A stretch of DNA of 64,000 bases from Azolla caroliniana (lineage: Eukaryota > Plantae > Polypodiophyta): positions 18,972,001 to 19,036,000 of the forward strand of contig JBHGNT010000002.1 of NCBI GenBank assembly GCA_043228905.1, written 5' to 3'. The position numbers and the translations under genes were made by a program. Position 1 is the first letter of the stretch, and each line of letters begins with the position of its first letter. Under the pieces are notes generated by a model. That model was not told the DNA's origin and made no database searches. It was given only the letters and a program-made list of their open reading frames with translations. Below, piece by piece: positions 8,201-57,617 of the stretch.

Positions 8201-9124
8201 ATGCTCCGGTTTGCATTCGAACTTCTTACCCTTTCGCAACAAGTGATAGAGTGGGTCTGCAATATGTGCATAGTGCGGAATCCATATGCGGTAGAATGCA
8301 CACGCTTCGAGAAACCTTCGGACTTCGAATTGTGACTCGCAGATTTCTTTCATAGCTTGAATCGCATCGATCTTGGTCGGTGACGGTCTTCGGCCGTAGG
8401 GCCCACATAGATGTCCGACTACCAATATCTCTTCTTGCCCGAATGTTGATTTCTCCTCGGAAAGTGTTAGGTGCACATCTTCTAACTTTCGAAGCACTTT
8501 CTCGCAATCGCGAATATGGTCGACTACGAACTTTCGGCATCCTCGATCATCCATAATTTCATCTTTTTCTTCTACCGCGCATCCTTTCGGCATTGTCTCA
8601 TCCATGAAGACATGTCCGATATCCACGGACTTCCAAAGTGTCGGATCTCCCGAGACTTCTTTCCTCTTTTGTTCGCTATTGGCGGGTAGTGGTCCCGCGG
8701 CCGGTTTCACCTTCTTCTCCACGGTCTTGTATTTCGTACTTACCATTGCTTCTTCTTTGTGGAGCGCATCTAACCCCATTTTTGCAATGATCTCGTACAT
8801 CTCGACCGATTCCACTGGAATTACCCGGTTTCCCTGGCTTGTATCTTCTGCGAGCTCTTCAAGCCGTTGTAGCATGCTCCCATAGAACACTTCTTCGACT
8901 ATTCCCACGATTTCTTCGTCTTCTTTTATTATTGATGCCGCCCGTAACTTATCCTCCACTTTTCGGTATTCTTTCTTCATTCCTCCAGTTACGGCCGTGT
9001 ACGTGGATGCCCCATCCGGACCGATTCGTACTTGTTTTGCTTTGAGAGTTTTCTTCCTGTGTGGGGTATCAGGGCTTCTCGGACTATCACTTCCCCACTC
9101 CGCAACAATCCACTCTAAAAATCC
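5224..9124 (-). pseudogene. pol: C pol ORF2: RT (core deleted), RNase H, integrase
   Basis: ORFs 8039..8980, 7496..7969, 7090..7476, 6286..7026, 5647..6234 and 5224..5562 (TVDTSPTGIGW, GHRGTWATF, IADRGE, FGPYEV). Confidence 0.87.
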
Positions 9125-13949: not shown

Positions 13950-14175
13950 TTCATCCGGTGAGCACTCCTCATCGGGCCTGCATCATCCGGTGCTTGCCGG
14001 GTACTCGTCGTCTGGTTCTCACCGTGTCTTCCGTTTCCGGGTACTCTTCATCCGGTTCTCACCGGGTCTTCACCGTCCGGCTCTTGCCGGGTACTCGTCA
14101 TCTGGTTCTCCGAAGCCGGGTACTCCTCATCCGGTTCTCACCAGGTCTTCCGTTTCCGGGTACTCCACATTCGGT
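13950..14175. repeat. GC/CCGG-rich tandem subrepeats in the D/K LTRs (also 18810-19055 and 57275-57470)
   Basis: Reiterated CCGGGTACTC(G/T)TCATCCGGTTCTC units; one extra unit in the 5' LTR of D. Confidence 0.8.
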
Positions 14176-14272
14176 TTCGGCCGAGGCCTATCGGCCTCGG
14201 CCGAGTTTGCTCATCAGTACTGTTCTTCTTATTTCCCATCTGGAGGGACTTGTTTCCTAACAAAATCCCCCT

Positions 14273-17200
14273 TCACTCCGGCATGGGATGTCTTACTAGT
14301 CCGACTCGCTTCTGGCATGCATCCAGCTTGTCGGGTATCAGTACTTTGGTCAACATATTTGACCCGTTCTCAACCGTGTGGATCTTCGTCAGCGCGAACT
14401 CCTGGTCATCCCCTCTTTCCCGGATCTAGTGATACCTACGCTGGAAATGCTTCATCCGGGAATGGTAGGCCGCATTCTTGGCAAGGTGGATGGCACTTTG
14501 ACTGTCGCAATAGAGCCGGTATTCCTCTTGCCGGATACCAAGCTCTCTGATGAAGTCCTTCATCCATAATATTTCCTTGTCGGCTTCCACAACCGCCATG
14601 TACTCCGCCTCCGTGGTTGACAATGCAACCGTCTTCTGCAGCCTCGACTGCCATGAAACAACTCCCCCTGCATATGTCATTACATACCCGGATGTAGACC
14701 GATTGGTATCCACATAAGCCGACATGTCTGAATCGGTAAAACCGTCAAGTTGAGGTTTTCCGGAGCCGAATTGGAGACACATGTTCGAAGTGCCCTTCAA
14801 ATACCGGAGTATCCATTTGACCGCGTTCCAGTGCTCCTTGCCAGGATTGCTCATAAACCGGCTCACCACTCCGACTGCGTATCCTATATCTGGTCGGGTA
14901 CACACCATTGCGTACATTAAGCTCCCGACAACAGAGGCATATGGAACCTTTATCATATCCGCCTTCTCTGCTTTCGTCTTCGGGCTTTGCTTACCGGATA
15001 ACCTGCAGTTTGTCGGAAGTGTCGATCCGACCGGTTTCGCACCTAACATGTTGAACCGTTGAAGCACCTTTGTCACGTATTTCTCCTGTGACAGCCACAA
15101 CTGCTTCGCTGGTTGGTTCCGGATGATATGCATCCCCAGCATCTGTCTTGCCGAACCCAAGTCTTTCATTGCGAAGGTTCGATTGAGAGCCTTCTTCAGC
15201 ATCCGTATTTTGGCTTGGTCCCGTCCGACGATCAACATGTCGTCCACGTACAGAAGGAGTATCAGGAAGTCGCCTCCTCCGAACTTCTTCACAAACACGC
15301 AATGATCGACTTGCGTCTTGTGGTACCCTTGATAGGTCATGAAGGAGTCGAACTTCCGGTGCCATTGTCGGGAAGCCTGCTTCAGTCCGTACAGGATCTT
15401 CTTCAACCGGCATACAAGGTTCTGCTTCCCTTTCTCCATGAATCCTTCCGGTTGCTGCATGTAGATCTCCTCTTCGAGGTCGCCGTGAAGGAATGCCGTC
15501 TTCACATCCAGCTGCTCTACCTCCAGATCCATGCTTGCGGCTATACTCAGCACCGTCCGGATGGAGGTCATCTTTACTACTGGGGCAAATATCTCGTCGA
15601 AGTCCACACCCTTCTTTTGTTGGAACCCCGTCACCACGATCCTGGCTTTGTATCTCGGGTGGTTGCCGGCATCTCCCGGTTTCAACTTGTACACCCACTT
15701 GTTTCGGAGTGCCCGCTTTCCTTTTGGCAACTCCACCAATTCGTAAGTATGGTTCTCATGCAGGGAATCCATCTCATCCTGCATGGCACTTAACCATTTG
15801 CGCCTGTGGGTGTCATCCTCCGCTTCTTCGAAGCTTTCCGGCTCTCCCTCATCGGTCAGCAGCACATGCTCTGAATCCGGAAATATTCGGGGGGCCCTTC
15901 TCTCTCTGAGAGGATATCTCCATCTTTGGGCTTCGATAGCCGGCTCCTCCATTTGCTCTTCATCCGAATCCGATTCGGGGTCTTGGCCGGTTCCGGTTTC
16001 AGCTTCCTCTACTTCTTCTGCCGGTTCGGTATCCTCACCATAACCGGCTGGTTCGTCGAGTGCTAACCGGTCTCTTGCCGGTTGGGTCCGCTCATCGTAG
16101 AATCGATCCTTACCGGTCGACTCGGAGTTCATTATCTTCTTCTCCGACTCCTAGTCGGCGAGCGTCTTGTCCTCCATGAAGATAATATCTTGACTCCGGA
16201 ATACCTTCTTGTCTATCGGGTCCCACACTCGGTAGCCGAACTCATCGTCGCCGTAACCGAGGAATATGCACGGCCGAGTCTTTGGATCTAACTTTCCTCT
16301 TTGGTCCTTAGCTACATGCACATACGCGAGACACCCAAACACCTTCAGATGCCGGTAGGACACTTCCTTACCGGTCCATACTCTCTGCGGCGTGTCTCCA
16401 TCCAAGGGTACTGAGGGTGATATGTTTATCACATACGTCGCTGTCGACAGTGCCTCAGCCCAAAACGCCTTGGGTAGTTTTGCATGCGCCAGCATACTCC
16501 GGACCCTCTCCATTATGGTCCGGTTCATCCTCTCGGCCAGCCCGTTTAGTTCCGGCGTCTTCGGCTCGGTAAATTCGAGCCGGATTCCCTTCGAGCGGCA
16601 GTACTCCTCGAACTGCCCCTGGTATTCTCCTCCGTTATCATCTTGAACAGCCTTCAGCTTCCGACCGGTTTCTCTTTCCACTCTCGCGTGGAGCTCTTTG
16701 AAGACGGATAGCACCTGATCCTTCGTCTTCAACGGTGTGGCCCACAGCTTCCGGCTGTGGTCATCTATGAACGTCACAAAGTACTGCGCTCCGGCATGTG
16801 ACTTCGTGTCCGCTTGACATACATCAGTATGCACCAACTCCAGTGGTGCATTACGTCTCATCGATGTCCTTGATCGGAAGGAGTTTTGGTTTTGTTTATC
16901 GGCCAGACAATTAGTGCACTTCTCCAAGTGCATGTTCTTCACTGGAATGAGGTTTTCTTCTGCAAGCCTCTTCATCCCCTTTTCGCTCATGTGACATAGC
17001 CTCTTGTGCCACAGCTCACCGGCAGTGTCGGATGCCACGTTCACTTCCTTCGGACATAACCGGGCATTCATCAAGTACAACGTGTTTACCTTTCGGGCCC
17101 GAGCCACAATCAAGCTCCCTTTGTTGAACTTCATAACACCGTTTCGGATGCTACCCGTGTAGCCTTCATCATCTAGCCGATCGACTGATATCAGGTTCAG

Positions 17201-18327
17201 ACGAACCTCCGGGACGTGTCAGACATCTTTCAGCAGCATCTTGCATCCGGTTGGTGTTGTCAACCACACGTCTCCTATGCTGACAATTCGGCATGTACCT
17301 TCATTCCCTATCCGGACACAACCGTGATCACCAGCTGTATAGGATGAAAAGTATTTACGGTATGGGGTAAGGTGGAACGACGCTCCGGAGTCTACCACCC
17401 AGGTCATCTCATCGCCGGCAAGGTTTATCTCACTCTCCTCGGTGATGAGCATCAACTCTTCTTCACTTGCCGCGATTGCCGTTGTTCCCTTCCGGTCCGA
17501 TCCCCTCCGGGTTTTACCGTTCCGGTCCGGTGTCCGCTTCGAATCGGTACCATCGGTTTTCTTGTCTTTTCGGAAATGCCGATAGTTCTTCTGGAAGTGT
17601 CCCGGCTTGCTGCAATAGAAGCAAGTAGGCCTCCCCCTTGACTTTGACCGTGTCCCTGACTTCTCCCGGTTCTTGGGACTACGGTTTCTGTGTCTTCCAC
17701 GTTCCGATTCGGTAAGGAGCGCTTTGGAGTCGGAGCTCGTAACCTTATCTTTCCAACGCGCCTCCTCATCTAGCAAGCTCGACTTTACTCTTGCTAGGGA
17801 TAACCGTTTTCCTTCCGACCCGACGTTGCCCAAAGTGACAACCAACGTCTCCCAGCTATCCGGGAGGGAACCGAGCAAGAGTAGCGCTAGTACCTCGTCG
17901 GTGAGAGGTACTTCCAATGATGTTCCCTGGTGGATCAGCCCTTGGAAGGCATTTATGTGCTCCGCCATGCTGGAGCCATCTTGGTACCGGAGTCTTACTA
18001 GCTTCTGGAATACCGAAACCTGATTAACAACATTTTTGTTTTGAAACATAATGCCGATCTTCTCCCAGAGCTCATGAGCCTTCCTCTCATCATTGAAGTT
18101 GTTGTATAGGCTCATGTCGATGAAGCACCGTATGTACGCTGTTGTCTTCATGTGCATCACCTCCCATATCGTGGCGTCGATTTTGTCCGGTCTCTTGTCT
18201 CCGAACTGAACCGGCAACCAAAGATCTTTGACCACGAGCATGTCCCTCATCTTCGACTTCCACACCGAATAGTTGGAGCCGGTGAGCTTGAACATATCTC
18301 CCAACGATTCATCCATTTTTTGTGTCA
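14273..18327 (-). pseudogene. pol: D gag-pol polyprotein (a few stops and frameshifts)
   Basis: ORFs 17219..18388 (gag, zinc knuckle, WVVDSGAS), 16151..17134 (integrase, YFVTFIDD) and 14426..16132 (RT LLYVDD, RNase H). Confidence 0.92.
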
Positions 18328-21300
18328 TTTTGCTCTGATACCACTTTGACAGTAACTCACGCTCACTATGCGCAACGCTTGGCCACAACCGAACTTAGAA
18401 CCATACATAGAAAACGGGAATGAATGCACGACACAAAGGAGAGAAGAGTACACAGGATGTTTAACGTGGAAAACCCTGAGTGGGAAAAACCACGGCAACC
18501 CACAGACTGCAAACTATCACTATGTTAGAATGAATACAACAGTGAGCTCACGGAGGCAGCGACCTCGTGCTCACGATCTTCGCCACAGGTGGCGGTTACA
18601 ATAGAGGCAACGGCCTCTTCCTCTCTCTCTCTCTCTCTGTACACTGTTACGCTCTCTCTCTTCTTGCACCAACAAGAATGACAACCACGCACACTTATTA
18701 AGTTTGCGCTAAGTCATATTTATACTAATATGACTTTTCGGCTTTTTACAAATATAGCCTCGACGGACTCTCAGAAACATATTTACGAATATGTCCCTTC
18801 ATCCGGTGAGGACTCCTCACCGGGCTTGCATCATCCGGCGCTTGCCGGGTACTCGTCGTCCGGTTCTCACCGGGTCTTCCGTTTCCGGGTACTCTTCATC
18901 CGGTTCTCACCGGGTCTTCACTGTCCGGCTCTTGCCGGGTACTCGTCATCCAGTTCTCCGAAGCCGGGTACTCGTCATCCGGTTCTCCGAAGCCGGGTAC
19001 TCGTCATCGGGTTCTCACCGGGTCTTCTGTTTCCTGGTACTCCACATCCGGTTTCGGCCAAGGCCTATCGGCCTCGGCCGAGTTTGCTCATCAGTACTGT
19101 TCTTCTTATTTCCCATCTGAAGGGACCTGTTTCCTAACAAGTCAAAACTGCGCTAGAGTGGCAAAATCCACGTTCGTTACGAGATGTACAATGTTTCCTA
19201 GGTTTTGCTAACTTCTACCGCAAGTTTATACAAGATTACTCAAAGATTATTTTACCTCTCACACAACTTACGAAGAAGGGACAGACATTTCTTTGGTCCA
19301 ATGAAGCGGACATGGCCTTTAGGCATCTTAAGAAAGCCTTTACATCAGCTCCTATTCTAGCTCATGTGGATACAAACAAACCATTCATCATGGAGGCCGA
19401 CGCATCGGATTTCGCCCTTGGTAGCATCCTTTCTCAACAAGGAGATAAAGAAGAGTTACATCCTGTGGCTTTCCATTCGTGCAAATTTGATGTCGTGGAA
19501 ATCAACTACGAGATACATGACAAGGAGTTATTAGCCATCATGGATTCATTTGTGCAATGGTGAGACTTCTTAGAGGGCTCTCCACATCAGGTCATCGTCT
19601 TCAGTGATCACAAAAATCTTGCTTATTTCCAGAACGTTCGTGTACTAAATCAACGGCAAGCTCGGTGGGCCTAATTCCTCACGTGTTTTGGCTTCAAAAT
19701 CACATATCGACCGAGGAAGCAGCAAGGAAAACCAGATGCACTATCGAAGCGTTCATATCTTGCACCTCGTCCTGGTGATCCAGCGTTTGATAATCAAAAG
19801 CATGTAATCTTGGGACCAACACGTTTGCACACAACGCGGATTTTTCACACTCCACTAGATTCCCGGATTGTCGATGCCATTCGTGCTAACTTGAAGACAG
19901 ACAATTTTGCTCAAGCCATTTTAGCGCACGTTGATACCTCTCGGGCATCCTGTTCCCAGTCTCAACAACCAGGTATGGACTACCGACAATTCAAATATCA
20001 TGATGGTTTATTGTTCTTTAAAAAGCTCGTATATGTTCTCGATTGCTCCTGTTGCCTTCAAATCATCCAAAATTGTCACGACACCCATACATCGGGACAT
20101 TTCGGTAGTACAAAGACGTTGTATCTAGTTCAACGATCTTTTTGGTGTTCCCATATGCAACATTTTGTCAATGACTACATTCAGACCTGTGATGCTTGCT
20201 GCCGAGCAAAGATGCCATGACATCATCCATATGGCTTGTTGGAACCCTTACTGATTCCAAGTAAGTCATGACAGTCTATTTGTCTTGATTTTATCATAGA
20301 TTTGTCAGTCTCGAAGGGTTTCGATGCTATCTTAACCGTCGTTGATCGATATACTAAGATGGCACATTTTGTGTCGTGTACTAAGGCCATCACTAGTGAG
20401 GAAACCGCCACCCTTATCATGCGTGAGATATTTTGGCATCATGGCCTCCCAAACAGTATCATAAGTGACTGAGGACCTCAATTCGTCTCCAAATTTTGGA
20501 AGCATCTCTTGAAGATGCTCAAGGTGTCTTGTAACCTCTCCTCCGGCTACCACCCCCAGACCGATGGGCAGGCGGAACGAACAAATCAAACGCTTGAACA
20601 ATACCTCTGGTGTTTTCTGAGTTATCAATAAGATGATTGGGTTGATATTCTCCACTTTGAGGAGTTTGCTTATAATAACGCTATTCACTCCTCGACTTGG
20701 GTCTCCCCATTTTACGCTTATATTGGTTCTCATCCTCGCTGGTCTATGATCGACACCCCGGAGCTACCTACCAATCCTCGTGCCGAGGATAGTTTGGAGA
20801 GGCTACGCAAGATCTAGATGGATCTCTCTACTCATCTTCATCATGCTCAACACACATAAAAGACTTATGTAGATCGTCATCGGCTTCCCTCCTCTTTTGC
20901 CATCGGAGATCGAGCTTGGCTCTTACGTCGTCACATCAAGACTACTCGACCGTGCGACAAGTTGGATTATCAATGACTCGGTCCTTTCCGTATTACCGGT
21001 AAGGTTAATGATGTCACATTCCGCCTTGATCTTCCTCCGCATCTTCAGATACATCCGGTCTTCCATAGTTCTCTTCTTGAACCTTATAAAGCAAACACTA
21101 TTCCCGATCATGTTACACCACCGCCGCCCCCGCTTGAGTTAGACGTCGGCCCGGAGTATGAAGTTGCTGCTGTCCTCGACTCCAAATTTGTTTGCAACAA
21201 ACTTTATTATTTGGTCGATTGGCTTGGCTATAGTCTGAGCAAATGTACTTGGGAACCTGTTGAGCATGTCGCCAATGCTCATGATCTTCTTGATGATTTC

Positions 21301-32724: not shown

Positions 32725-35137
32725 CTACTCGAACGGATTCTGTGGCATAGGTCCACAATATGGTTTGAGTCGAAACCCATTGATCCATTTGCCCATTATC
32801 TGACCGATGAGCGTTCCGAGTTGGTATGAACCGTTGAATTCCCGCGTTATCCAATACGGTCCGATCCACCGGAACCGTAGCTTTCCCGGCATCTGACCCA
32901 TCCGGGTCTGGAACACCAGTACCGGCTTGCCGATCCCGAACATCTTCTCATTGCCCTTCCGGTGCCGATTGACAAACGCCTTCCTTCGTCGCTGCTCCAG
33001 TTCCAACTGCATGAGACTTGCTATCCGATGCTCCTCGAGTTTGCATAATGCGGCTAACCGGATTTTTTCTGATTCCTTTTCACTTAGTCGTTCTCTAACC
33101 TGTATCTGCAAACTCGGAACTTGAAATTCGATCGGGATTACTGCTTCAAGCCCAAATGCTAACCGGAATGGTGTTGACCGGATACTCGTTTTGTATGCTG
33201 TCCAGTATGCCCATAGTGCACTATGCAGCTTGGTGTCCCAATCGGTCCGGTTTTCATTGACGGTCTTTCGCAGGGTGTTTTAGAGCGTTTTGTTTGTGGA
33301 TTCGGCTAGTCCATTGGCCTGTGGATAATAAGGGGTACTGCACTTGTGTACCATTGCATAGAATGTTGTTAACCTCTCCACTACTTGATCGAGAAAATGT
33401 CCGCCTTGGTCGCTAATTAACTCGATCGGGCATCCATACCGGCACCAGATGTACTCATATAAGAACTTTGTCGTTGATGCCACAATGTTGTCCCGCAAAG
33501 CCTTGGCTTCTACCCACTTGGTGCAATAATCAGTGGCGACTATAACATATCTGTTGCCGGTTCTCATTGCGGGAGGTTTAAATGGCCCAATGAAATCCAG
33601 TCCCCATTTCTGAAATGGTTCTAAGGGTAGCATCGGCTAGTGAGGCATCCTTGTCTGTTCTGTTGGTTGGCCCATCCGTTGACATAAATCACAAACTTTC
33701 GCATACCGAACCGAGTCCTTCAGTGTTGTCGGCCACGATAGCCCGCTGTGCCATATCTTTCTTGCCGTAGCATCCCCGGCATAGTGCCCTTTGGCAATGC
33801 CACAGTGCGCTTCTCGTAATATTGTGTCCTTTTCGTCGCTTTGCACTGCTCGCCGCCATATGTCATCCGCGCCTTTGTGGTACAGGGTGTCCTGTAGTAG
33901 ACAAAAATGTCGGCTTTGTACCGCTTACCGCTTCCGCTCATCTCGGTTCATCTCCTCCGGTGGAAGTCCCGTGCTTAGGAATTGATGCATGTTGGTTAGC
34001 GACTTGTCTTCATCGACTACCGTGCTATCGACTGCCGTTTTGGTTGTTACTTTAAACAACTCAGCATCCGGAAACTCATCCGGGACTCCGTCGCTGGTCT
34101 CATCGGAGTCTAACCGGCTCAGATAATCGGCAACCGCATGTTGTATTCCCAGCCAGTGATATATTTCGAACTCAAACTCTTGTAGCAACAATGTCCATCG
34201 GGTCAGCTTGCCGGTGAGTGATGCCTTTGAGACCAAATATAACAGCGTTGAGTGGTCGACATGGAATGAAATTTTCCTTCCCAATAAATAGTGCCTGAAC
34301 TTGGTAACATTGTAAATCATCCCTAAGACTTCTCTTTCCGTTGTTGAATAATTTCTTTCCGCCTGGGGTAGCTTCTGGCTAGCATAATAGACTGGTCGGT
34401 ACCATTTCGGTTCAGTCAGTTGCATTAGTGTGCTGCCGATTGCTATGTGGGACGCATCAACGAACACGTGGAATTCTTTTGACCAGTCCGGTGGTTGCAC
34501 CATTGGTGCTTGTGATAGCAGTACTTTTAGTGCCTAGTAAGCCTCATCCTCCGTATTTGTCCATTGAAACAGTGTTTGGTGAACCGCGACATGCAACGGT
34601 GTAGCAAGATCGGCCAAATACCGAAGCATCCGGCAATGCCACCGGATTTGCCCTAGAAACCGACTCAAAGCTTTAGCCATGGATGGTGCTGGTGCTTCTA
34701 AGATTTCTTTGATCTTATTGGGGTCTACTGCGATCCCGTTCTTGCTGACAAGATGGCCCAACAATGCACCGCTTGTTACTCCGAACACACACTTTGCTGG
34801 ATTCACGCTTAACCGATAACTCCTGCATTTCTCAAGACATAGCCAGAGGTGTTGGAGATGCTCTCCTTCTCGACTATACATGACGAAGTCATCCAGGAAT
34901 ACCTACACGAATGCCGGAATGAACTCGCCAAATATTTCCATGATTATTCGTTGGAAGGTCGCCGACACGGTCTTGAGCCCGAACATCATTACCACTACGA
35001 CGAAAACTCCCCATTCGGTGATGAACGCCGTCTTGTCTTGGTCGTCGGGGTGCATCCTTATTTGATTTGTAGCTGCTAAAACCGTCTAGAAAGCTATACA
35101 CTTCATGACTGGCTACCGCGTCCAGGACTCCATCCGT
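32725..35137 (-). pseudogene. pol: G pol: RT (3' part), RNase H, integrase
   Basis: FVDASHIAIG, NYSTTERE, WGLDFIGPF, ISDQGGHF, WIGPY. Confidence 0.88.
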
Positions 35138-35777
35138 TGTCGTGAAGAAAACCGTCCACAAGCGGAATCGGTGTACCGGAGCGTAGAAACCGACTCTTCA
35201 TGCACGTGCGCCTTAAGTTGTACATAGGAGATCCTAGGTAGATTCGGTAGGTAGGGAGTAAAGGGGAAACGGCTCCTTCCTTGCCTATAAAAGGAGGGAG
35301 ACGAGGAGGGTAGAGGGATCGCGGAGAGCCGAGGACGAAGTGCTGTCGGTTTGCGTGCGAAGGCTTCTCTCTCTCTTTCTGGTTGCAAACGCCATAGCTT
35401 CCTTTTGTGCAGGTTTCGGGAGGCCCGCGCTGCTCTGAGGAATGCCCGAGTGCTTCCGGCAGCACCTCCAACCTGTTCCCGTCTTTCTGTGCGTTTACGA
35501 ACAGGTATCGGCATCTGTCCGCCGGCCTGTTCGGTTGTAACCGACTTCGTGTTTTGTTGTCCTCGTGTTCTTGTTGTTTGTCTTGTCAATACATACATAC
35601 TTTCGTGGTTTTCTGTGTCGCTGTCCCATTCGCGTCTTTGCGTCGAAGGGCCGTGTCCCTGTGAATCTACGCTCGCACGTAGTGGGTCTCTCTCTCTCTC
35701 TCTCTCTTACTCTTTGGTACACGACCCCCGAGGTCCCGCCTCACTCCACGCATCCGCGAGGAATACCTTGACATATT

Positions 35778-35794
35778 TGGTGAACCCGACGTGA
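35778..35794 (+). promoter_or_regulatory. PBS complementary to tRNA-Trp
   Basis: TGGTGAACCCGACGTGA, 4 nt after the LTR, matching the tRNA-Trp 3' end. Confidence 0.8.
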
Positions 35795-37944
35795 AAGAGG
35801 CGGCAGAAGAGCAGAAGATGAGGGGGTCGGATCTTGCAGAGGCCATGGCTTCGGCCGTGGATCGGATATTGAGCACACGCGAGGGCACCGGCGCCCTCGA
35901 CAGAGCCATTGAGGCGGTCGTCGGTACGATCGGCCGTTTCAGCGGAAAGGATGCTACGAAGTATTTGGCGTCCTACGGGGCGGAAATGCTGATGCGGGAC
36001 ATTCCGGAAGAGAGGCGTCTTGCCGGGTTCCCTCGAGTGGCGATGCTGAGCATCCATGCGGAGGTGCTCGAGGTACGGGCGGAGAGCCGTACCTGGGAGG
36101 AGTTCGAAGGTCGACTCCTAGAGAAATACGGGCTGGACGACGCGCTCCGGCTTTCGAAACAGGACTTCATGGAATGGGTGGAGTCCCCCGGCAAAGGAAG
36201 AAACGCGTTGGCACTCCTCCGGGAGTTCGAAGAACGCTTTGCGCGCCTTTCGGCGCTTAACCGAACTATCCTGGATACGAGCCGGGTCCTACTGTTCGTC
36301 AAGTCGGTGGACGAGCGGGACCGGGATCAAGTCGGCTCCTTGCTGGAAACTGAAGACGGGTTGACGACCGACTGGGCTGCGGTTAAGAGAGTCTGTGGCC
36401 GTTTCGACAAACGGCGAGAATGGGCTGACAATGGGGCGGCCGGTGCGGGCTCTGTTACAGCAAGGAGGCTTGAACCGGCGCCGCAAGTGCGAAGGGAAGA
36501 AACCCGGGAATGGCTCGAAACCGGTTCGGCTTCAACCAGCATGGCCAATGGCTCGTCCGGAGGAGCAGCGCTAGAGGAGTTGACGCGGGCGATAAAGGAT
36601 CTCCAGATCGCCCAGACTCGAAGGGAAGGCGGCGAACCGGCTCGTGACCGACAGCCGGCAGCGGGGAACAGGTGCATGTGGTGCGACGAGGTCGGCCACA
36701 TTCGGAAGGACTGCGGCGACTTCGCAGAGGCGTTGAGAAACCGGGTGGTGTACCTGTGGGAAGGCCGGGTGCACGCTGGCGACACCAGGAGGGCCCTGAG
36801 CCGAAACGACGGGCGAGGAGGTATGAAGAGACCGATGGAAGAGGCAGCGGCCCGACACGTGGAGGCCATCCACTACTCGGCGTCGGCCGGTATTCGGGTC
36901 GGGGGCAGCGAGGCCCGAAAGGAGAGTAAAGACGGTTCCTGGTCGGCAATGCTGGAAGGCCTCGCCGGCGCACAACTGAGGAAAGATGAAACGGACCGCG
37001 TTGAGAGACGGGTCCGGGAAATAACCGGGTGGAGCGATCCGGTCGAGGAGAAGACGGGCTTCGTAGAAGCCGCTTGCCGGAACTACGAGGCTCTGGTAGA
37101 AGATAAGCGAGTAGGGAAAGCCGGAGCGGCCGGGCCCTCACAACGGTACGAGACCCGATTCGGGCAACGACGGAACGATGCCGGCGGGTCCAGCCCGCAA
37201 GATAACCCCAGGAAGGGCGGGTACCGACTGGGGACAGAAATAGAAAGGACTACGGACCTACGGAAGGTCCTAGAGGAACGGATCCTCGACAGCAAAGTGG
37301 AGCTGTCATTGCGAGAGGTGCTAGGGATCGCCAAGAAGGAATTCCACGACTCCATTGTGGACCTGGTGAAACGGAAGAGGCTATCAACGGAGACGGATCC
37401 GGAAAGACCGGTAGAGGTGCGGACGACGCACATCGACGACTTGGCGCTGGCAGATGAGTGGGCGGAGAGCCACTATTCGAGGCCACACTGGGCCCGAGCG
37501 ACCACGGAGACCCCGGTAAAAATCGGAGGTGTTCAGGAACCGGTGGTAGCGTTGGTGGACCACGGTTCGGAAATAAACCTAATGTCCATGGACTTCTATA
37601 AGAAGGGGAAGTGGCCGATCAACACCAAGCACGGGTGGAAGATACGGGCGGCGACGCGCGCCACCGAGGAACTGCACGGGGCCTGCCCGAATGTGCGAGT
37701 GAAGATCGGCGACGTCGAGATTGACCAGCACTTCTTCGTACAGGAGACGTCCTCGCATCCGGTCATTTTAGGCGAACCATACATCACGGCGGCGAGAATG
37801 GAGACCAAGGTGCTGGACAACGGTTCGGCCTACTGGAGGGTCAAAAGCTAGGACGGGCGCCATTCGGTGCAATTTTTGACGGTGCGGCCGAACCACGAGA
37901 GAAACCACGAATCTCTCGGTGGCGAGAGCCGGGAGGATTTTTAG
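35791..37944 (+). CDS. gag: F ORF1: gag plus aspartic protease (premature TAG at 37849, probably from CAG)
   Basis: 686-aa ORF with CMWCDEVGHIRKDC and LVDHGSEINLM. The frame continues to EDF-stop at 37944, as in C. Confidence 0.85.
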
Positions 37945-40900
37945 AGAGGGCTGCCAAGGCGTGGGGCCGAGACAGCCCGGACACTCGGAAAAGACCCCAT
38001 GACTGTACGATAGGTAGGGGATTTTGCTTCTCCGACAACGGAGGGTGTATGCTGGTCGGCATCATTGGCCGAGAAAAGACAAGGGCGGAAGAGCGACTTC
38101 GAGCGTGCGGAGTTCTTGGCCCGGACGAGGAAATCAGCGGAGCCGTGGAGGCGGTCTCCTTCGACGACACCTTAGGGATGCTGAGGAAGGTTGCCGGAGA
38201 AGACCTTAACGAAGACCGGACGATACCGGTATGTTCCGAAAAGATGTACGAAGTCATCGCGAACTTCAGTCGGGGGCTCGGGTCGGATCGGACGGCCCGA
38301 GTTAGCACAAAGTACAAGACTGTGGACCGGAAGGTAAGGCCAGTCGCGGCACCCTTACCGGAGGGCAGCGAGTCTCGGATTAGAGGGGTTGCGTCGGACC
38401 CCAGTTTACGAGATCCGGCCTGCATAGGACACACCTTCACCGACAGGACGCTCTGGGAGCTCAAAATCGGTGGGGGCGGGTTCCTACTGCCGGCGGAGGA
38501 AGAACGGATTCGGAGGATGCTCGGAAGGCACGGGAAAGCCTTCGCATTCTCACCGGGAGAGATCGGGTGCGTAGACCCGACGATCGTGGAGCCGATGGTG
38601 ATATTCACGGTACCGCATGTACCGTGGAATCTCAAGCCGATCCCGGTACCGAGAGCTCACATCCCGAAGTTGATGGAGCTACTGAGGCAGAAAGTAGATA
38701 TGGGCATTCTCGAACCGTTGAGTGCCCCATACTCGAACCGATGGTTTACCGTACCAAAGAAAAACGGAACATTGCGCTTCATTCAGGACCTGCAGCCGGT
38801 CAACAGAGTGACCATCCGGAACGCAGGAATCGGACCGACCATAGACGAGTTCGCGGAGGCCTTCGCCGGAAGGTCGATTTACTCGGTCGGTGATCTATAC
38901 TCGGGGTACAACCAGTTCCAGCTAGCCGTGGAGAGCAGAGACATTACGACAATGCGAACTCCCCTCGGCCTAGTGCGAATGTGTACCCTGCCACAAGGAG
39001 GGACTAACTCGGTGGCTCACATGGTAAATGCAATGAACAAGGTACTGAGGGATTGCATCCCCGACATCACCATGCCATTTCTGGACGACATCCCGATAAA
39101 GGGGTGCCCGGTGGAGGAGAAGGACGAGATAGTCGGGCCGGACGGATGCCGGCGATTCATAGAGAAACACATTGACGACTGCGAGAAGGTGCTACAAAGG
39201 CTAGAGGATGCTAGGCTCACCTTCTTCGGGGAGAAATCGGCCTTCGGGCAATCAGAAATCCTGGTGGTCGGACACCTATGTGGACCTTATGGTCGGAAGC
39301 CGTCTCCGGCAAAGGTAGAAGCCATCTCCACGATGAAGACCGACTGTAGCTCGGTTACGGAAGTTCGGAGGTTCCTGGGGGCATGCGCATTCTACCACAT
39401 ATGGATCCCGCATTACTCCCACGTTGCAGAGCCGCTATACGGGTTGCTGAAGAAAGGGCGAAAATTCGAGTGGCGAGACGAGCACACGGGGTCGGTCCGG
39501 AAGCTGAAGGAAGCTCTTATGGCAGCACCGGCGCTCTGGAAGGCTGTCTCGGTACCCCGGTATACATAACGGTGGATACGAGTCTGACCGGGATTGGATG
39601 GGTCGTCAACCAAGAAGACGAGGACGGCATTCGGTTCCCGATCCGATTCGGCGCGAAGGTCCTCAGTGAGCGACAGCGAGGGTACGCCCAGGTTAAACGT
39701 GAACTCTGGGGTATCGTTTCGGTAGTAAAGGCCGACAAAGACTACCTGATCGGGACAGAAGTGATTATCGAGACGGATTGCCTGCCGATTCTTGGCATGG
39801 TCTCCGGATGCGCGACACCGGACCTGGCGATGCTCAGGTGGATAGCGTACATAAAGTCCCTGGACCCAGAGATACGACACATTTCCGGAAAGGACAACGC
39901 CATAGTCGACATGCTTTCGAGGGCGAGGTTTGATGACGAGGGCGGCATGGTTTCGGAGGACGAAGAAGTCGGCGTGGACTTCTTCAAGGCGGCATACGTG
40001 ACGACCGATGGGACGAGCACTCCGGCACTTAACGACTTCTACGAGAGCAAGTACGACGGCGAGTGGCTCCAAATCGGTGGATTCTTGAGGATAATGACGC
40101 CGGATGTGTCATGGACGAAGGGCGAGGCCAACCGGATCCGGAAGAAAGCTTACCGATTCTTTCTCTCGGACGGATACTTATGGAAGCACCCGAAGAAGAG
40201 GTACGGCGCTCCGCTCCGGGTGGTGGCGATGAAGGAAGAACAGGAGGAGCTGCTGACGGCCTACCACGACAGCCCTTGGGCCGAACACCGTGGAACCTGG
40301 GCCATGTTCGAGAAGATAAAGGGGAAGTACTGGTGGCCGGGACTGTACCGGGACGTGCATCGGTTCGTGACAACTTGCGAGAGCTGTCAGATGCACTCCA
40401 TAGTCCGACACCGGGACGAACTTCACCCTATGTACCCTCCGACCATCCACTTCAAATGGATGGTAGACCTGGTAACGATGCCGATAGGAGTAGGACAGAT
40501 GCGGTATCTGGTCCTGGCTCGGGAAGATCTAACGAACCAGGTAGAAGGTCGGGCCCTTCAGAACAAAACGACTGCGGCCGAATGTCGGTTCCTGCTCGAG
40601 GACGTAATATGCCGGTACGGGTGCGTCGGGAAGATCGTGGCTGATCGCGAGGAGTTGGACGCCGAAGAGGCCGAGGAGCTGTTCGACCGGCTAGGAGTCA
40701 AGCTCTCGCTTACCACTGCGTACAATCCGGAGGCGAATGGGAAGGTGGAGCGCGGACACGGACCGATCGTCAAGGCATTAGTTTGGGCATGCGGAGGTCG
40801 GGTCGGGAACTGGCCGCGGCTACTGCCTTACGCGTTGTGGGCTGACCGGACTACGCACAGTTCGGTAACCGGATTCATGCCGGCAGAGCTCATGTTTGGG

Positions 40901-41401
40901 CAGAAGCCGATCATGCCGATCGAACGTACGGTCTCCTCATGGGCAACCGTGGACTGGAGAGACGAGATGAGCCGGGAGGAACTGCTGACGACGCGCATAC
41001 GACAGCTCGAGCGGAGACCGGAGGACGTGGAAAAGGCTGCAGAAAAGCTTCGGGTGGCCAGGACGAGGAACAAAGCCCGGTTCGACCAGACGCACCGGCT
41101 CCGACCGAAGAAGATCGAGGAAGGCGACTGGGTGCTAGTCTACGACAGCAGCCTCGACAACCAGCACCGAGCGACACAAAAGTTCACAAGAAGGTGGTTC
41201 GGGCCTTACGTGGTACAAAGCGCCAACGACAACGGGACGTACCATCTGGCGGAACTCGACGGTACGAGAATAACGATACCGGTAGCTGGGAAGCGGATCA
41301 AGACGTTCAAGAAGCGTCACAACGACGAGCCGGATCAGGATGACTTGGACCACGACGACGAGCGATCCGAAACCGAGGAAGAGCCGACGGGCGGGGAATG
41401 A
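37935..41401 (+). pseudogene. pol: F ORF2: RT, RNase H, integrase (one frameshift near 39550)
   Basis: ORFs 38049..39569 (LPQG, FLDD) and 39383..41401 (TVDTS, EHRG, GPY). Confidence 0.88.
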
Positions 41402-42118
41402 TGGCTGGACTGGTTTTCTCCGTCCAAACACAATTTGGCGCATGCCGGTGGATGCGCGGTTAGGTGGGGGCGGATGTCGTGAAGAAAACCGTCCACAAGC
41501 GGAATCGGTGTACCGGAGCGTAGAAACCGACTCTTCATGCACGTGCGCCTTAAGTTGTACATAGGAGATCCTAGGTAGATTCGGTAGGTAGGGAGTAAAG
41601 GGGAAACGACTCCTTCCTTGCCTATAAAAGGAGGGAGACGAGGAGGGTAGAGGGATCGCGGAGAGCCGAGGACGAAGTGCTGTCGGTTTGCGTGCGAAGG
41701 CTTCTCTCTCTCTCTTTCTGGTTGCAAACGCCATAGCTTCCTTCTGTGCAGGTTTCGGGAGGCCCGCGCTGCTCTGAGGAATGCCCGAGTGCTTCCGGCA
41801 GCACCTCCAACCTGTTCCCGTCTTTCTGTGCGTTTACGAACAGGTATCGGCATCTGTCCGCCGGCCTGTTCGGTTGTAACCTACTTCGTGTTTTGTTGTC
41901 CTCGTGTTCTTGTTGTTTGTCTTGTCAATACATACATACTTTCGTGGTTTTCTGTGTCGCTGTCCCATTCGCGTCTTTGCGTCGAAGGGCCGTGTCCCTG
42001 TGAATCTACGCTCGCACGTAGTGGGTCTCTCTCTCTCTCTCTCTCTCTCTCTTACTCTTCGGTACAGGACCCCCGAGGTCCCGCCTCACTCCACGCATCC
42101 GCGAGGAATACCTTGACA

Positions 42119-45100
42119 CCGTAAATGGAAGTTGAAAGGCGTCGGTCACTGTTGCCGCATTGAGTTTCCGGTAGTCGACGCACACCCGGATCTTACCGTT
42201 CTTTTTCGGCACGTTGACTATGAGGCTTAACCATGTAGCTTTTTTCATTGGTCGGATAAAACCAACTCGTAGCAACTTGTCAATTTCCTCTTTGACCTTG
42301 GCCGCATAGTTGGGGTTCATTCAGTAACATCATTGTGCTACCGGTTTGGTATCCTTACTGAGATGTATCTAGTGTTGGTTCAATTGAGGATCCAACCCCC
42401 ACATGTCTTCATATGACCAGGCGAATACGTCCCGGAAATCCTTTAATAAAGTGATCATCGCCGTCTTGTTGTCCGGTGACATTTCCTTAGCAATATGAAT
42501 TGGTCTTGTGTCGTCCCCGGTTCCTAAGTTCACTACCTCTAACTGGGATGCTTTCACGCATTGGGATACCGCCATCTCCCTCTCTAGAGCTTCCTGTGCT
42601 TGCCGTAATTCTTGGATAGCTTCCTGATCCGGTTCCTCGATGGCATCGTTCGATTGCGTTATATATGGTGACATCGCTTCTGCCACATCGATTTCAAATA
42701 GGGGTACAATTTTTGGGTTTTCTTCTAAGTATTGGTCGACCTCTTCGTCCGCAAGCCCCTCGAGCATGTTTACACCTTCCGCATATAGCGGTGTCAGGCC
42801 CTTGCCGGTACTTGCTCGAGGGTGGGTAGGTACCCTTACTTTAGTCTTCCCTCGCCGAAAGGTAATCATGTTTTTCCACCAATTTTGTTTGATATGCGCC
42901 GTTTTTAGACATGAGCGGCCCAACAACAGTGGGTAAGCCCCTTGCGCATTGAGCTGCAGGACCACCGCCAAAATTCGGAATGCGTGGCCTCCGATAGTTA
43001 CGTCTAAATCCCGTATCAAGCCGGTAGGTCTTACCGAGCTTGTATCCGCCATTCGGAGCCAAAACGGGCAAGGCTCCCATTCCTGGATTCCCAGGGTATT
43101 ACAAGTCCGTAGACTCATCACGTTCACGCCCGATCCTCCGTCCACAATCGTCCCTGGTAGTTCTGGTCCTTTGACGATGGCGGTGATTGCCGGACTATTC
43201 ATGTCCACCACTGTTGGCCCTTCTTCCGGATTTGAGAAGAACGCAGGAGCCGACAATGGATTTGATGTGGTCATTCTCGATTTCAGTCCTTCCGTAAACT
43301 GGGGAAGTAGCTATAGTAACTGACCTAATGGCAGTGTAATTTGACATTCTTGTAACGCTTGCCATGTTGGGTCTTCTTGCTGAATCGTGTTGGTGGCGTC
43401 TTCCGGTTTTTCCTTTTGTTGTTCAAGCTCAGCCACATTTTGCTCATTTGCCTTCTTCACCCACTCGGTGGCTTGCTTTCGGATTGCCTCATGTGTTTCC
43501 CACTTCGTTGTTTTGCCTTTTGTCCTGATGGTGACTTGTTGTATGTCGGTGACTTTTGCTACCACCATATTTACGGCTGGTCTTTTCTCGTAGCTTTTAA
43601 CCGGACATTGATTATTGTAATGTCCTTCTTGTCGGCAATAGTAGTAGTACGCTTTCTGGGTGTTGCTGGATTCAGTGTTCACTCCGGTAACCGGTTGAGG
43701 TCCTATTGGTGGTCAGTTGGGTACTTGGCCTTGGTCCGGTTGGGTACTTGGCATGCCTTGTCCGGCTGCCACTAGCGGTCCTCCTGTCTAGTGTTCCATT
43801 TTTTATTGAAGTGTTTTTTGTTTCGGTAACCCTGTCGGGGCCGATTTTCATAATTATCTTGGTCCTCCCTCCGTTGGTTGTAAACGGGAGAGTGATCCCG
43901 GTTGTATCGCTCATATCGTTCACCGTTGTAATCCTGGTAGCTATCCTGTTGGTCTCGGTCGTGAGCATCCTTTCTGTCACTGTTTCGGATATCTTGCGCC
44001 GGCTAGTATTGCTCGTCTCGCCACCAATGTTCTTCTTCCTCCTCTCGGTTGCTTCGGGGTTTGATTTGCCTTACCGGTGCCGCTTGCCGGTTCAGCAAGT
44101 TATATTCGCATCGGTCCATTGTGTGCATCCTAGAATGACATAACATACACTGTGTCTGCATGGTACATTCTATTGCCGAGTGCCCGACATTGAGACAAGT
44201 TGTACATTGTATAGCTTGCCGAAAACATAGGTCGTCTTCTATCGGTAATGTACCCTGGAGTGTCCCCATTGTTAGCCACAAGCTTGTTTTCTCCATCTCC
44301 CTGACCCTTTCTATGACTTGGTCGATCATGCTGGTGCGGAAATCAATCACTGCGCACACCGTACGCAGGGGTTCCTAGAGTGCTGCTAGGAATATTGTTT
44401 TAGCCTCTGCCTTTGGTTGTACCTGATTGAGCTGATTGTGCATTCGTTGGAACCAGATTACAAATTGCTGAATGGTTTCTGTAGGTTCTTGCTGTATGGT
44501 GTAGAATAGGTTGACCATCTCTCGTTGATCCACCTCCTTGTTGAAGAACTGTAAAAATCTGGTTTTTAAGTCCTCAAACGCCGTGATGGTGCCAGGAGTG
44601 TGTGTCAAGCGCCATCGCGCAGCTGGTCCTTCCAAGGTCATGCCGAACTTTGCAATCTTCGAGCGTTCTGCTTCGGCGGCGGTCAAGTGTTGCAACACAT
44701 GGTTCGCTTCCCATGTTTGTAGAAATGCATAGATATGAGCTTCTGCATCCGGATCATCCTAGTTCTTGGGATATTGGAACGACATGTCCTTGTCGAGTGT
44801 CAGAGGTCTTTCCTCCTCTTCTTTCGGTGGCTCATGTGGCAATGTCGGAAGTTGATCCGCCACTTGTCGGTCTGGGGCTTCCACTTTCGTTAACTCTGGT
44901 TTTGGTGTCGGCGAGGTATTCGACTGCTCGTCCTCCGGTCCGTTTGGGGTATCGTGGCTGCTATGGTAATTCGAATGGGCGCTGCATTCCTCGTCCGAAT
45001 CCGATTCAAAGGCCAAGAACGGTTCCGAATCGCCTCCCCCTGTCGCTAGTGCTTGCAAAATGGATTCTGCGTCCCGGAGACTGCTCAAGCTGTGTCCTTC

Positions 45101-55000: not shown

Positions 55001-55612
55001 GATGACCAGTCGGATAAAGAATTGGCGAGTAGTGGAGAGACTCTATTGTGCTCTCCCCACGCAAGGAACCGAGGAGACGGTTCACGCAAAAAGAGAAGGG
55101 GAAGAAGAAGATGCCGGAATACGATACCGGTAGTGTAGGGTCGGATCGGAGTGAATTTGACCCCGGAAAGGAAGAAGATGAATCTTCAGAAAGGAAGTCT
55201 AAACTGGCCAGGAAGGCCCTCAAACTGGCTAACGGAAAGTTATGCCACTCAATCCGCCAGAAGAACCCCATCCAGAGGTACAGATACAATGAGTACATGG
55301 CGCATCAATATGCGTACATGAATAAGGTGGCGGAAGTGCGTGAGCCGGAGAGCTACGTAGAAGTAGCAAAAGACACAAATTGGCATGCTGCTATGGATGA
55401 AGAAATGCGCATGAAACCTGGTTGACCCTTCCTGACAGTGTAAACCGATCGGTTGCAAATGGGTAAATAAGGTGCATTACAATGCTAACAGTTCGGTCAA
55501 CCGATACAAGGCCCGGTTAGTGGCAAAGGGATATGCACAGACCCATAAAATCGACTACAACGAGACCTTCGCTCTGATAGCGAAGATGATGACGGTTCGT
55601 GTGGTATTGGTT

Positions 55613-57617
55613 GCAGAACATGTGCTGCTGACCGATGAGGGAGAGCCGGAAAGCTTCAAAGAAGCGAAGGATGACACCCACAGCCGCAGATGGTTAAGTG
55701 CCATGTAGGATGAGATGGATTCCCTGCATGAGAACCATACGTACGAATTGGTGGAGTTGCTGGAAGGAAAGCGAGCACTCCGAAACAAGTGGGTGTACAA
55801 GTTGAAACCGGGAGATGCTGGCAACCCCCCGAGATACAAAGACAGGATTGTGGTGAAGGGGTTCCAGCAGAAGAAGGGTGTGGACTTCGACGAGATATTT
55901 GCGCCGGTAGTAAAGATGACCTCCATCCGGACGATGCTGAGTATAGCGGAAAGCATGGACCTCGAGGTAGAGCAACTAGACGTGAAGACAACATTCCTTC
56001 ACGGTGACCTCGAAGAGGAGATCTACATGCAGCAACCGGAAGGATTTGTGGAGAAAGGGAAGGAGCACCTGGTATGCCAGTTGAAGAAGAGCCTGTACGG
56101 ACTGAAGCAGGCTCCTCGACAATGGTACCAGAAGTTCGACTCCTTCATGACCGATCAAGGGTACCACAAGACGCAGGCCGATCACTGCGTGTTTGTGAAG
56201 AAGTTTGAAGTAGGCGACTTCTTGATACTCCTTCTGTACGTGGACGACATGTTGATCGTCAGACGGAACCAAGCCAGAATACGGATGCTGAAGAAGGCTG
56301 TCAACTGAACTTTCCCAATGAAAGACTTGGGTCTGGCAAGACAGATGCTGGGGATGCATATCATCCGGAACCGGCCAACGAAGCAATTGTGGCTGTCACA
56401 GGAGAAGTACGTGACAAAGGTGCTTCAGCGGTTCAACATGTTAGAAGCGAAACCGGTCGGATCAACACTCCCAGGAAACTGCAGATTATCAAGTAAGCAA
56501 AACCCGAAGACGAAAACTGAGAAGGCTGATATGATGAAGGTTCCATATGCCTCTGCTGTCGGGAGCTTAATGTACGCAATGGTGTGTACCCGACCGGATA
56601 TAGGATACGCAGTCGGAGTGGTGAGCCGATTTATGAGCAATCCCGGCAAAGAGCACTGGAACGCTGTCAAATGGATACTCTGGTACTTGAAGGGCACTTC
56701 AAATATGTGTCTCTGATTCGGCACCGGAAACCCTCAACTTGACGGTTTTACCGATTCGGACATGTTGGCTGATGTGGATACCAGACGGTCTACATCCAGG
56801 TATGTAATGACATATGCAGGGGGAGTTGTTTCGTGGCAGTGGAGGCTGCAGAAGACGGTTGCGTTGTCAACCACGGAGGTGGAGTACATGGCAGCTGTGG
56901 AAGCCGGCAAGGAAATATTATGGATGAAGGACTTCATCGGAGAGCTCGGTATCCGGCAAGATGAATATCGGCTCCATTGCGATAGTCAAAGTGCCATCCA
57001 CCTTGCTAAGAATGCGGCCTACCATTCCCGGACGAAGCATATCCAGCAAAGGTATCACTGGATCCGGGAAAGAGTAGATGACCAGGAGTTTGCGCTGACA
57101 AAGATCCAAACAGCCGAGAACGGGTCAGATATGCTGACCAAAGTACTGATACCCGACAAGTTCGATGCATGCCGGAAGCGGATCGGACTAGTAAGACATC
57201 CCATGCCGGAGTGAAGGGGGAGTTTGTTAGGAAACAAGTCCCTCTGGATGGGAAGTGAAAAGAACAGTGATGATTCGGATGTGGAGTACCCAGCAACGGA
57301 AGACCCGGTGAGAACCGGATGACGAGTACCCGGCAAGAGCCGGATGGTGAACACCCGGTGAGAACCGGATGTGGAGTACCCGGCAACGGAAGACCCGGTG
57401 AGAACCGGATGTCGTGTGCCCGGCAAGTGCCGGATGATGCAGGCCCGGTGAGGAAGGTTCACCGGATGAAGGGACATATTTGTAAATATTTTTCTGAGAG
57501 TCCATCGGGGCTATATTTGTAAATAGCCAAAAAGTCATATTAGTATAAATATGACATAGGGCAAACGTAGTACTGAGGTTGTCATTCTTGTTGGTGCAAG
57601 ATCAGAGCGCAATAGTG

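Follow-up and report, generated by a model that had tools for sequence, protein, structure and literature searches.

A predicted −1 frameshift signal, comprising a covarying stem 1 within a probable pseudoknot, conserved after the protease of Phygy-like Ty3/gypsy retrotransposons

Between the coding regions for protease (PR) and reverse transcriptase (RT), Phygy-like Ty3/gypsy retrotransposons very probably carry a conserved signal for −1 frameshifting, in which stem 1 covaries and a pseudoknot is probable. The case comes from relatives of element F, a Ty3/gypsy retrotransposon with long terminal repeats (LTRs), 6981 bp long, at 35138-42118 in a 64,000-nucleotide (nt) stretch of DNA from Azolla caroliniana (contig JBHGNT010000002.1, positions 18,972,001 to 19,036,000, forward strand; hereafter the window), which is a nest of LTR retrotransposons. 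In the proposed mechanism, most ribosomes would terminate immediately 3′ of the slippery site, releasing Gag-PR. A minority, probably held up by a predicted H-type pseudoknot 6 nt downstream, would move back by one base on G_GAU_UUU and continue into Gag-PR-linker-RT-RNase H (RH)-integrase (INT). The slip would be a tandem movement of tRNAs from GAU/UUU to GGA/UUU, with the pseudoknot presumably folded in vivo, and its purpose may be to keep RT and integrase scarce and protease as abundant as Gag. An earlier note on this DNA, made from the letters alone, had proposed a −1 frameshift signal between PR and RT that includes an H-type pseudoknot, and this is still the best reading after the comparisons among families described below.

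F itself is an inactive copy, unable to express its ORF1-ORF2 product (ORF, open reading frame) because a premature TAG interrupts ORF1 31 codons upstream of the shift site and ORF2 changes frame near 39549-50; the evidence was therefore drawn from relatives. The relevant features of F, and of a second element in the window, C, are as follows.

35818-37944, plus strand: ORF1, from a candidate start at 35818 or 35845 to the slippery site, encoding gag (DUF4100) and a putative protease with the D-H-G-S-E motif
37849-37851, plus strand: premature in-frame TAG in ORF1, a sense codon in relatives
37935-37941, plus strand: slippery heptamer G_GAT_TTT (GGATTTT)
37942-37947, plus strand: spacer TAGAGA, 6 nt, including the ORF1 stop TAG at 37942-44
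37948-37955, plus strand: predicted pseudoknot, stem 1, 5′ arm
37960-37966, plus strand: predicted pseudoknot, stem 2, 5′ arm, inside the stem-1 loop
37971-37978, plus strand: predicted pseudoknot, stem 1, 3′ arm
37995-38001, plus strand: predicted pseudoknot, stem 2, 3′ arm, beyond the 16-nt loop 3
37938-38303, plus strand: linker, coding in the −1 frame for about 122 codons, from the shift site to the KYK motif at the N terminus of RT
37938-41401, plus strand: ORF2, encoding linker-RT-RH-INT and read in the −1 frame; the frame change near 39549-50 interrupts it in F
9118-9124, minus strand: heptamer of element C, the same as in F, followed by TAG at 9115-17
9061-9111, minus strand: predicted pseudoknot of element C, stem 1 at 9101-11/9081-91 and stem 2 at 9093-98/9061-66

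Every coordinate in the earlier note for the heptamer, the TAG, the spacer and the two stems of F (GGGCTG 37948-53 with CAGCCC 37973-78, and GTGGGG 37961-66 with CCCCAT 37995-38000) proved correct, and the −1 frame is open, as it had said, from the shift site into RT, the open span being 37725-39569. Both stems are present as described but longer than noted: family-wide, stem 1 has 8 bp (37948-55/37971-78, with one C.A mismatch in F), and stem 2 of F extends to 7 bp (37960-66/37995-38001) rather than 6. Element C, which is without about 200 RT codons, shares with F the heptamer, TAG, 6-nt spacer and both stems, in agreement with the note's claim of a common slippery site, spacer and topology. 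The same two copies are no proof of covariation, because they differ by only one true double change in stem 1 and have an identical 5′ arm in stem 2; it is the comparison across families that shows it.

Relatives, shift site and predicted pseudoknot

Copies of relatives were taken from metagenome contigs and sequencing runs. The best 80 of 222 relatives in the metagenome scan were analysed, making 82 sequences with F and C, and an in-frame G_GNT_TTN site lies 3′ of the PR core in 74 of them, the other eight being cut short or decayed. The 74 site-bearing sequences form 39 clusters at 90% identity, with a median between-cluster identity of 66%. Thirty-two of these clusters and L020, the neighbour of F, make up a set of 33 families (31 of −1 type and two of −2 type); the remaining seven (L018, L042, L067, L068, L075, L077 and L079) were left out as decayed, duplicate or not reaching RT. 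Among the 64 sequences that reach RT, the RT frame is −1 in 61 (open throughout in 59), −2 and open in two, and broken in one. The earlier note had named PR and RT in one frame as the arrangement that would count against it, and this occurs in none of the 64 loci.

Searches for protein homologues gave a similar picture. Of 153 hits, 80 terminate in DF or NF no more than 160 residues from the protease motif; another 25 end in DF or GF with five residues added, two in VF with one added, and ten otherwise, while 25, which are named gene models, have long tails and 11 are without the protease motif. Named members include proteins of Physcomitrium patens, Riccia sorocarpa and Adiantum nelumboides, a moss, a liverwort and a fern, which makes a non-seed land plant the likely host. 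A deep search of 50% representatives added 89 proteins, mostly fragments and gene models, of which 47 reach the end of PR; 20 of these were scored as DF, NF, GF or F plus five residues (one of them a false call) and 27 as other. The motif that gives the putative protease its name, at 37551-37574 of the window, is D-H-G-S-E in 139 of the 141 hits matching it, against the usual D-T/S-G, and Pfam matches to PR are weak in the relatives (E 0.02-0.2). Viral contigs were also considered as relatives, and none of five pattern matches proved to be one.

The shift site is far better kept than its surroundings. In 62 of 73 loci the heptamer is exactly G_GAT_TTT, with a near variant in the other 11, and a stop codon follows directly in 64 of the 73 (TAA in 30, TAG in 22, TGA in 12). 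Positions 1, 2, 4, 5 and 6 of the heptamer are invariant in all 31 families of −1 type, the preceding 15 bases being 32-65% conserved, and its Asp codon is GAT in 28 of 28, compared with 298 GAT and 191 GAC in PR and RT. The two frames can overlap by very little: in nine families an RT-frame stop ends 10 nt or less before the heptamer, with the ORF1 stop directly after it in six of them, and in L017 and L056, where that RT-frame stop ends 3 nt before the heptamer, the overlap amounts to the heptamer plus 3 nt. The spacer between heptamer and stem 1 is 6 nt in 31 of the 33 families and 5 nt in two, within the 5-9 nt expected of such signals, and G_GAT_TTT has one P-site mismatch, as does the site of pea enation mosaic virus (PEMV). 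A 10-mer search allowing one mismatch found six occurrences against 5.6 expected, both exact matches being the F and C junctions; the family comparison lifts the signal above chance.

In some branches (L052, L060, L072, L073, L078, and the Physcomitrium and Adiantum proteins) ORF1 extends five codons beyond the heptamer, often ending in PL, which places its stop inside stem 1 and provides a natural test of whether an adjacent stop matters. L043-L045 have two tandem G_GAT_TTC heptamers 12 nt apart (L043:4781-4799), the second 6 nt from stem 1.

Stem 1 covaries firmly. On an alignment anchored at the shift site, RNAalifold predicts 8 pairs unaided, starting 6 nt 3′ of the heptamer, six of them with double changes; the covariation score was reached by none of 500 shuffles and drops from 0.41 to 0.06-0.16 when the register is slid. 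Traced on the PR+RT tree, stem 1 has 14 co-changes against a mean of 4.9, a count equalled or exceeded in four of 40320 re-pairings. Four further pairs (13-45, 22-36, 23-35 and 24-34), paired in only 13-20 of 34 rows, lie outside this core stem. Stem 2, and hence the predicted pseudoknot, is probable. Its predicted length is 4-8 bp, with a median of 6, and the loop that precedes it is mostly 11-18 nt. For each sequence the register was fitted, and tested by permutation, because alignment by sequence alone failed to place the 3′ arm, which slides within a C run while insertions and deletions stay triplet. The 3′ arm native to a family gives better pairing than arms reassigned from others (0 of 20000 permutations), and the PR+RT tree gives 27 co-changes against 15.6, with ten of 40320 re-pairings as high, a test inflated by the per-sequence fit of the register. 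In four families the G run and the C run have changed together: CAAGG/CCTTG (L052), GCGAGA/TCTCGC (L065), TGAGGGT/ACCCTCA (L054) and GGGACA/TGTCCC (L017). Rfam has no family matching the structure, its one hit being a chance match (E 5.5).

Weighing the alternatives

Several observations weigh against the reading of the junction as a pseudoknot-stimulated −1 shift. F and C are both broken copies, and nested folding of each as a single copy is unremarkable (z −0.52, −0.97, −0.36 and +0.95). A single accession series of metagenome assemblies supplied most of the 80 loci, and these are collapsed contigs; in several of the seven excluded clusters a stem is broken together with the reading frame. 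Some families have a weak stem 2, with 4 bp in L011 and L050, and it beats 95% of composition shuffles in only 18 of 33 families, F itself standing at 14/200. Lastly, there are fused PR-RT gene models for Riccia and Physcomitrium.

Much of the weighing turns on the linker between PR and RT, which reads as coding sequence and not as an intron because its 15 different lengths (354-459 nt between the site and the RT motif) all keep the frame, it is stop-free in the RT frame in 32 of 33 families (the other frames average 8.5 and 11.5 stops), it has shared motifs, and its dN/dS is 0.21-0.61 in all the pairs that could be scored, 11 of 12. A linker without stops and under purifying selection therefore argues against an Ogre-type intron, readthrough and reinitiation alike. 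It is about 120-150 residues long (window 37938-38303), with the conserved motifs E.I.G..EE.SF.DT.G.LE and V.S..MY, and is possibly an unnamed domain, as no Pfam family matched it.

Splicing of the Ogre type, by which a PR-RT intron would be removed from some transcripts with TTTTTAG as its 3′ splice site, is very improbable. TTTTTAG does resemble an acceptor, Ogre splices at the same position (PMC6317226), and the Riccia and Physcomitrium models join PR to RT, with a shallow check of RNA to set beside them; but the acceptor is not conserved, only 11 of 33 families having TAG as their stop and four having the first AG 16-19 nt away, the region to be removed is coding, and L054 and L059 (discussed below) share no acceptor offset that would restore the frame. 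Each of the five fused models examined skips the DF tail and conserved sequence and joins at a different point, and we infer that their introns were made by the predictor. For two poly(A) runs of a related organism no splice joint across the junction is listed, splicing being another of the findings that the earlier note named as refuting it, but this is weak, the reads being few (94 and 69, taken from 12-13% of each run, 80-99% identical and on both strands); RNA contigs (X19), of a kind that cannot show strand or level, also span the junction. Separate translation of RT-RH-INT, either by reinitiation or by internal initiation from an ATG downstream of the ORF1 stop, fares no better and is likewise very unlikely: most families do share a Met some 20 codons ahead of the KYK motif, and F has an ATG at 38049, which the earlier note took as the start of the RT ORF, yet this ATG is not a conserved start, the position of the first RT-frame ATG varies from codon 2 to 110, there are conserved linker motifs upstream of the shared Met, and the heptamer would be left without a role. 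Most remote of all is transcriptional slippage adding a base to the T run, or readthrough of the stop; the five-T run present in most families speaks for slippage, but the run is 3-4 long in families with TTC or a next base other than T and the fixed 6-nt spacing fits a ribosome, while readthrough fails on a 0 frame with 4-14 stops in every linker and on a stop that may be TAA, TAG or TGA.

A milder alternative accepts the −1 shift and holds that the stem-1 hairpin alone stimulates it, stem 2 being incidental or optional. That stem 2 is built on G/C runs, with 4-8 bp, a variable register and weak pairing in several families, is in keeping with this, as is a control window 180 nt further on with 5.2 bp of pairing against 6.0 for stem 2; we nevertheless consider it improbable, since changes in the G run are matched by changes in the C run in L052, L065, L054 and L017 and the permutation test gave 0 of 20000.

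A candidate −2 branch

Two sister families, L054 and L059 (tree support 1.0), depart from the −1 frameshift pattern in a concerted way.

L054:2835-2900 and L059:2497-2562: AG_GTT_TTT, 5-nt spacer, RT in the −2 frame

Both read CAG_GTT_TTT, 5 bases before stem 1, and keep both stems (10-11 bp in stem 1 and 8 bp in stem 2). RT-RH-INT is open in the −2 frame for 1181 (L054) and 1106 (L059) codons, and the −1 frame ends after one and six codons, respectively. They appear to have both replicated long after they split, because dS between them is about 1.1-1.2 with dN/dS of 0.086 in RT-RH-INT and 0.036 in PR. The ORF1 end of L054 recurs in at least five further cluster members among those listed, and its junction is covered by contigs of four runs with four organism labels, with no indel and with heptamer and spacer unchanged at a 5% share. 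One contig spans the junction without a difference, and two variants inside the predicted knot keep or add a pair. The four runs also contain F-like DNA.

We judge it somewhat probable that L054 and L059 use a −2 shift on the same predicted pseudoknot, and, with similar reserve, favour, for a whole lineage of non-seed-plant elements, a retrovirus-like pseudoknot frameshift after the protease, one branch of the lineage having switched from −1 to −2, G_GAU_UUU becoming AG_GUU_UUU with the loss of one spacer base and the knot kept. [quoted passage not shown] A +1 shift into RT in these two families, or their being defective and copied in trans, is a less likely but substantial possibility: DNA does not distinguish +1 from −2, a −2 shift would re-pair poorly in the P site (GUU to AGG), and only two families are involved; on the other side, both ORFs have been under purifying selection since the split, the site equals that of PRRSV, a shorter spacer favours −2 shifting, and the two share no +1 re-pairing codon at the stop.

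The likeness to PRRSV nsp2 extends from the identical octamer in both families to the −1 frame of L054, which ends at once on TGA as in G_GUU_UUU_ga (PMC7618843). The differences lie in what would drive the shift and what depends on it. PRRSV is without downstream RNA structure and needs nsp1-beta and PCBP (PMC7618472), whereas L054 and L059 both keep a predicted cis pseudoknot 5 nt downstream and so do not share the arterivirus-type trait of stimulation by protein through a C-rich motif without RNA structure; moreover, −2 shifting would be their sole route to essential enzymes. If true, replication of these retrotransposons would depend on a −2 frameshift with RNA structure as its sole driver, and they would put to a natural test the rule by which shortening the spacer draws the ribosome into the −2 frame.

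Lineage, known systems and other contents of the window

The boundaries and flanks of F are as follows.

35134-35137, plus strand: left target-site duplication CCGT, fitting NCGN and identical to the four bases at 42119-42122
35138-35773, plus strand: 5′ LTR (TG...CA)
35778-35795, plus strand: primer-binding site
41475-42118, plus strand: 3′ LTR, with a purine-rich tract just before it
42119-42122, plus strand: right target-site duplication CCGT

The LTR pair is near-identical, differing by five substitutions in about 636 aligned bases and by the length of a microsatellite. In F and L059 a frame is open from inside the LTR across the primer-binding site into gag (window 35774-35800 and 42053-42118). 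No tRNA gene was found in the window; the primer-binding site, putatively of the tRNA-Trp type, has a 16-nt core present at two mismatches or fewer in 42 of the 80 loci. With its 4-bp NCGN duplication (CCGT on both sides, from one insertion) and its short length filled by coding sequence, F resembles Phygy elements, as it may in its putative primer type, and Pfam finds neither a chromodomain nor an extra RNase H in the ORFs of F or in five linker-RT stretches, as in Phygy. Three Physcomitrium proteins also group with L065 in the PR tree (support 0.97).

In Phygy elements the target duplications are 4-bp NCGN and the primer sites mostly of the tRNA-Trp type, and REXdb lists their ORF organisation as not determined (Neumann et al. 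2019, PMC6317226). At 6981 bp, F is below the 7656-9968 bp listed for P. patens, a range from a single species (PMC6317226), and its lineage also has members in Riccia and Adiantum; we call F Phygy-like, a non-chromovirus Ty3/gypsy element, because it is shorter than the listed range.

The earlier note thought a gag-PR/RT-RH-INT split uncommon in plant LTR elements, but it is common in Ogre and Retand: GAG-PROT is separated from RT-RH-INT in 35% of Ogre elements and divided from it by a single stop in 14%, and a single stop divides them in 49% of Retand (PMC6317226). The split at this position gives these elements the same protease-rich, RT-poor ratio as expected for the F family, though by other means: Ogre has an intron between PR and RT, shown experimentally (PMC6317226), and Retand a single in-frame stop, both with an extra RNase H, whereas the F family has overlapping frames and a coding linker. 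Overlapping frames are found in the plant Ty3/gypsy lineages Tcn1 and Selgy (60% and 65%; PMC6317226), where, however, the overlap in GAG:o:PROT-RT-RH-INT lies between gag and protease instead of protease and RT. REXdb lists no lineage in which a GAG-PROT/RT-RH-INT split in overlapping frames prevails (PMC6317226).

Parallels also come from viruses, and the F-family signal would work like the gag-pol signal of Rous sarcoma virus. In Rous sarcoma virus and its relatives (ASLV) the protease is part of Gag (PMC12789967), although the wording of PMC5009743 derives the Rous sarcoma virus protease from pol, and one −1 shift near the gag end, with a pseudoknot and about 5% efficiency, yields RT and integrase (PMC5009743). 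It is a retrovirus whose heptamer differs and whose pseudoknot is more complex, and the layout in common with the F family is likely convergent. PEMV, an umbravirus, has the identical G_GAU_UUU, and a nearby stop matters for its shifting (PMC5009743), but it is an RNA virus and its stop lies one codon further on.

The mechanism is thus of a known kind, and its new parts, as far as searched, are its placement after PR and the apparent switch of direction. A 2016 review, citing a 2003 survey (Gao et al.), has plant retrotransposon pol known only in the +1 frame (PMC5009743). We found no description of frameshifting in this lineage in literature searches that extended up to, but did not include, Repbase, theses, subscription papers and bioRxiv supplements, and the word 'frameshift' is absent from the available text of PMC7466625, PMC13468544 and PMC12885004. 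If the proposed −1 frameshift is right, it fills the 'not determined' entry on how Phygy-like polyproteins are expressed, adds a third solution to the protease-versus-RT split after the Ogre intron and the Retand stop, and explains the inconsistent spliced models that gene predictors give for these elements. It also supplies dozens of natural variants of one predicted pseudoknot, −1 and likely −2, in the same sequencing runs, a ready panel with which the influence of spacer length on slip direction could be tested.

Elsewhere in the window, a Ty1/copia element at 13500-19050 on the minus strand has a tandem 39-40-nt repeat in its terminal repeats and an inverted partial copy, 91% identical, at 55609-57570. 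A distant gypsy pol (26% identity to the RT-RH-INT of the family) occupies 32758-34860 on the minus strand and directly flanks F, which is inserted into, or beside, it.

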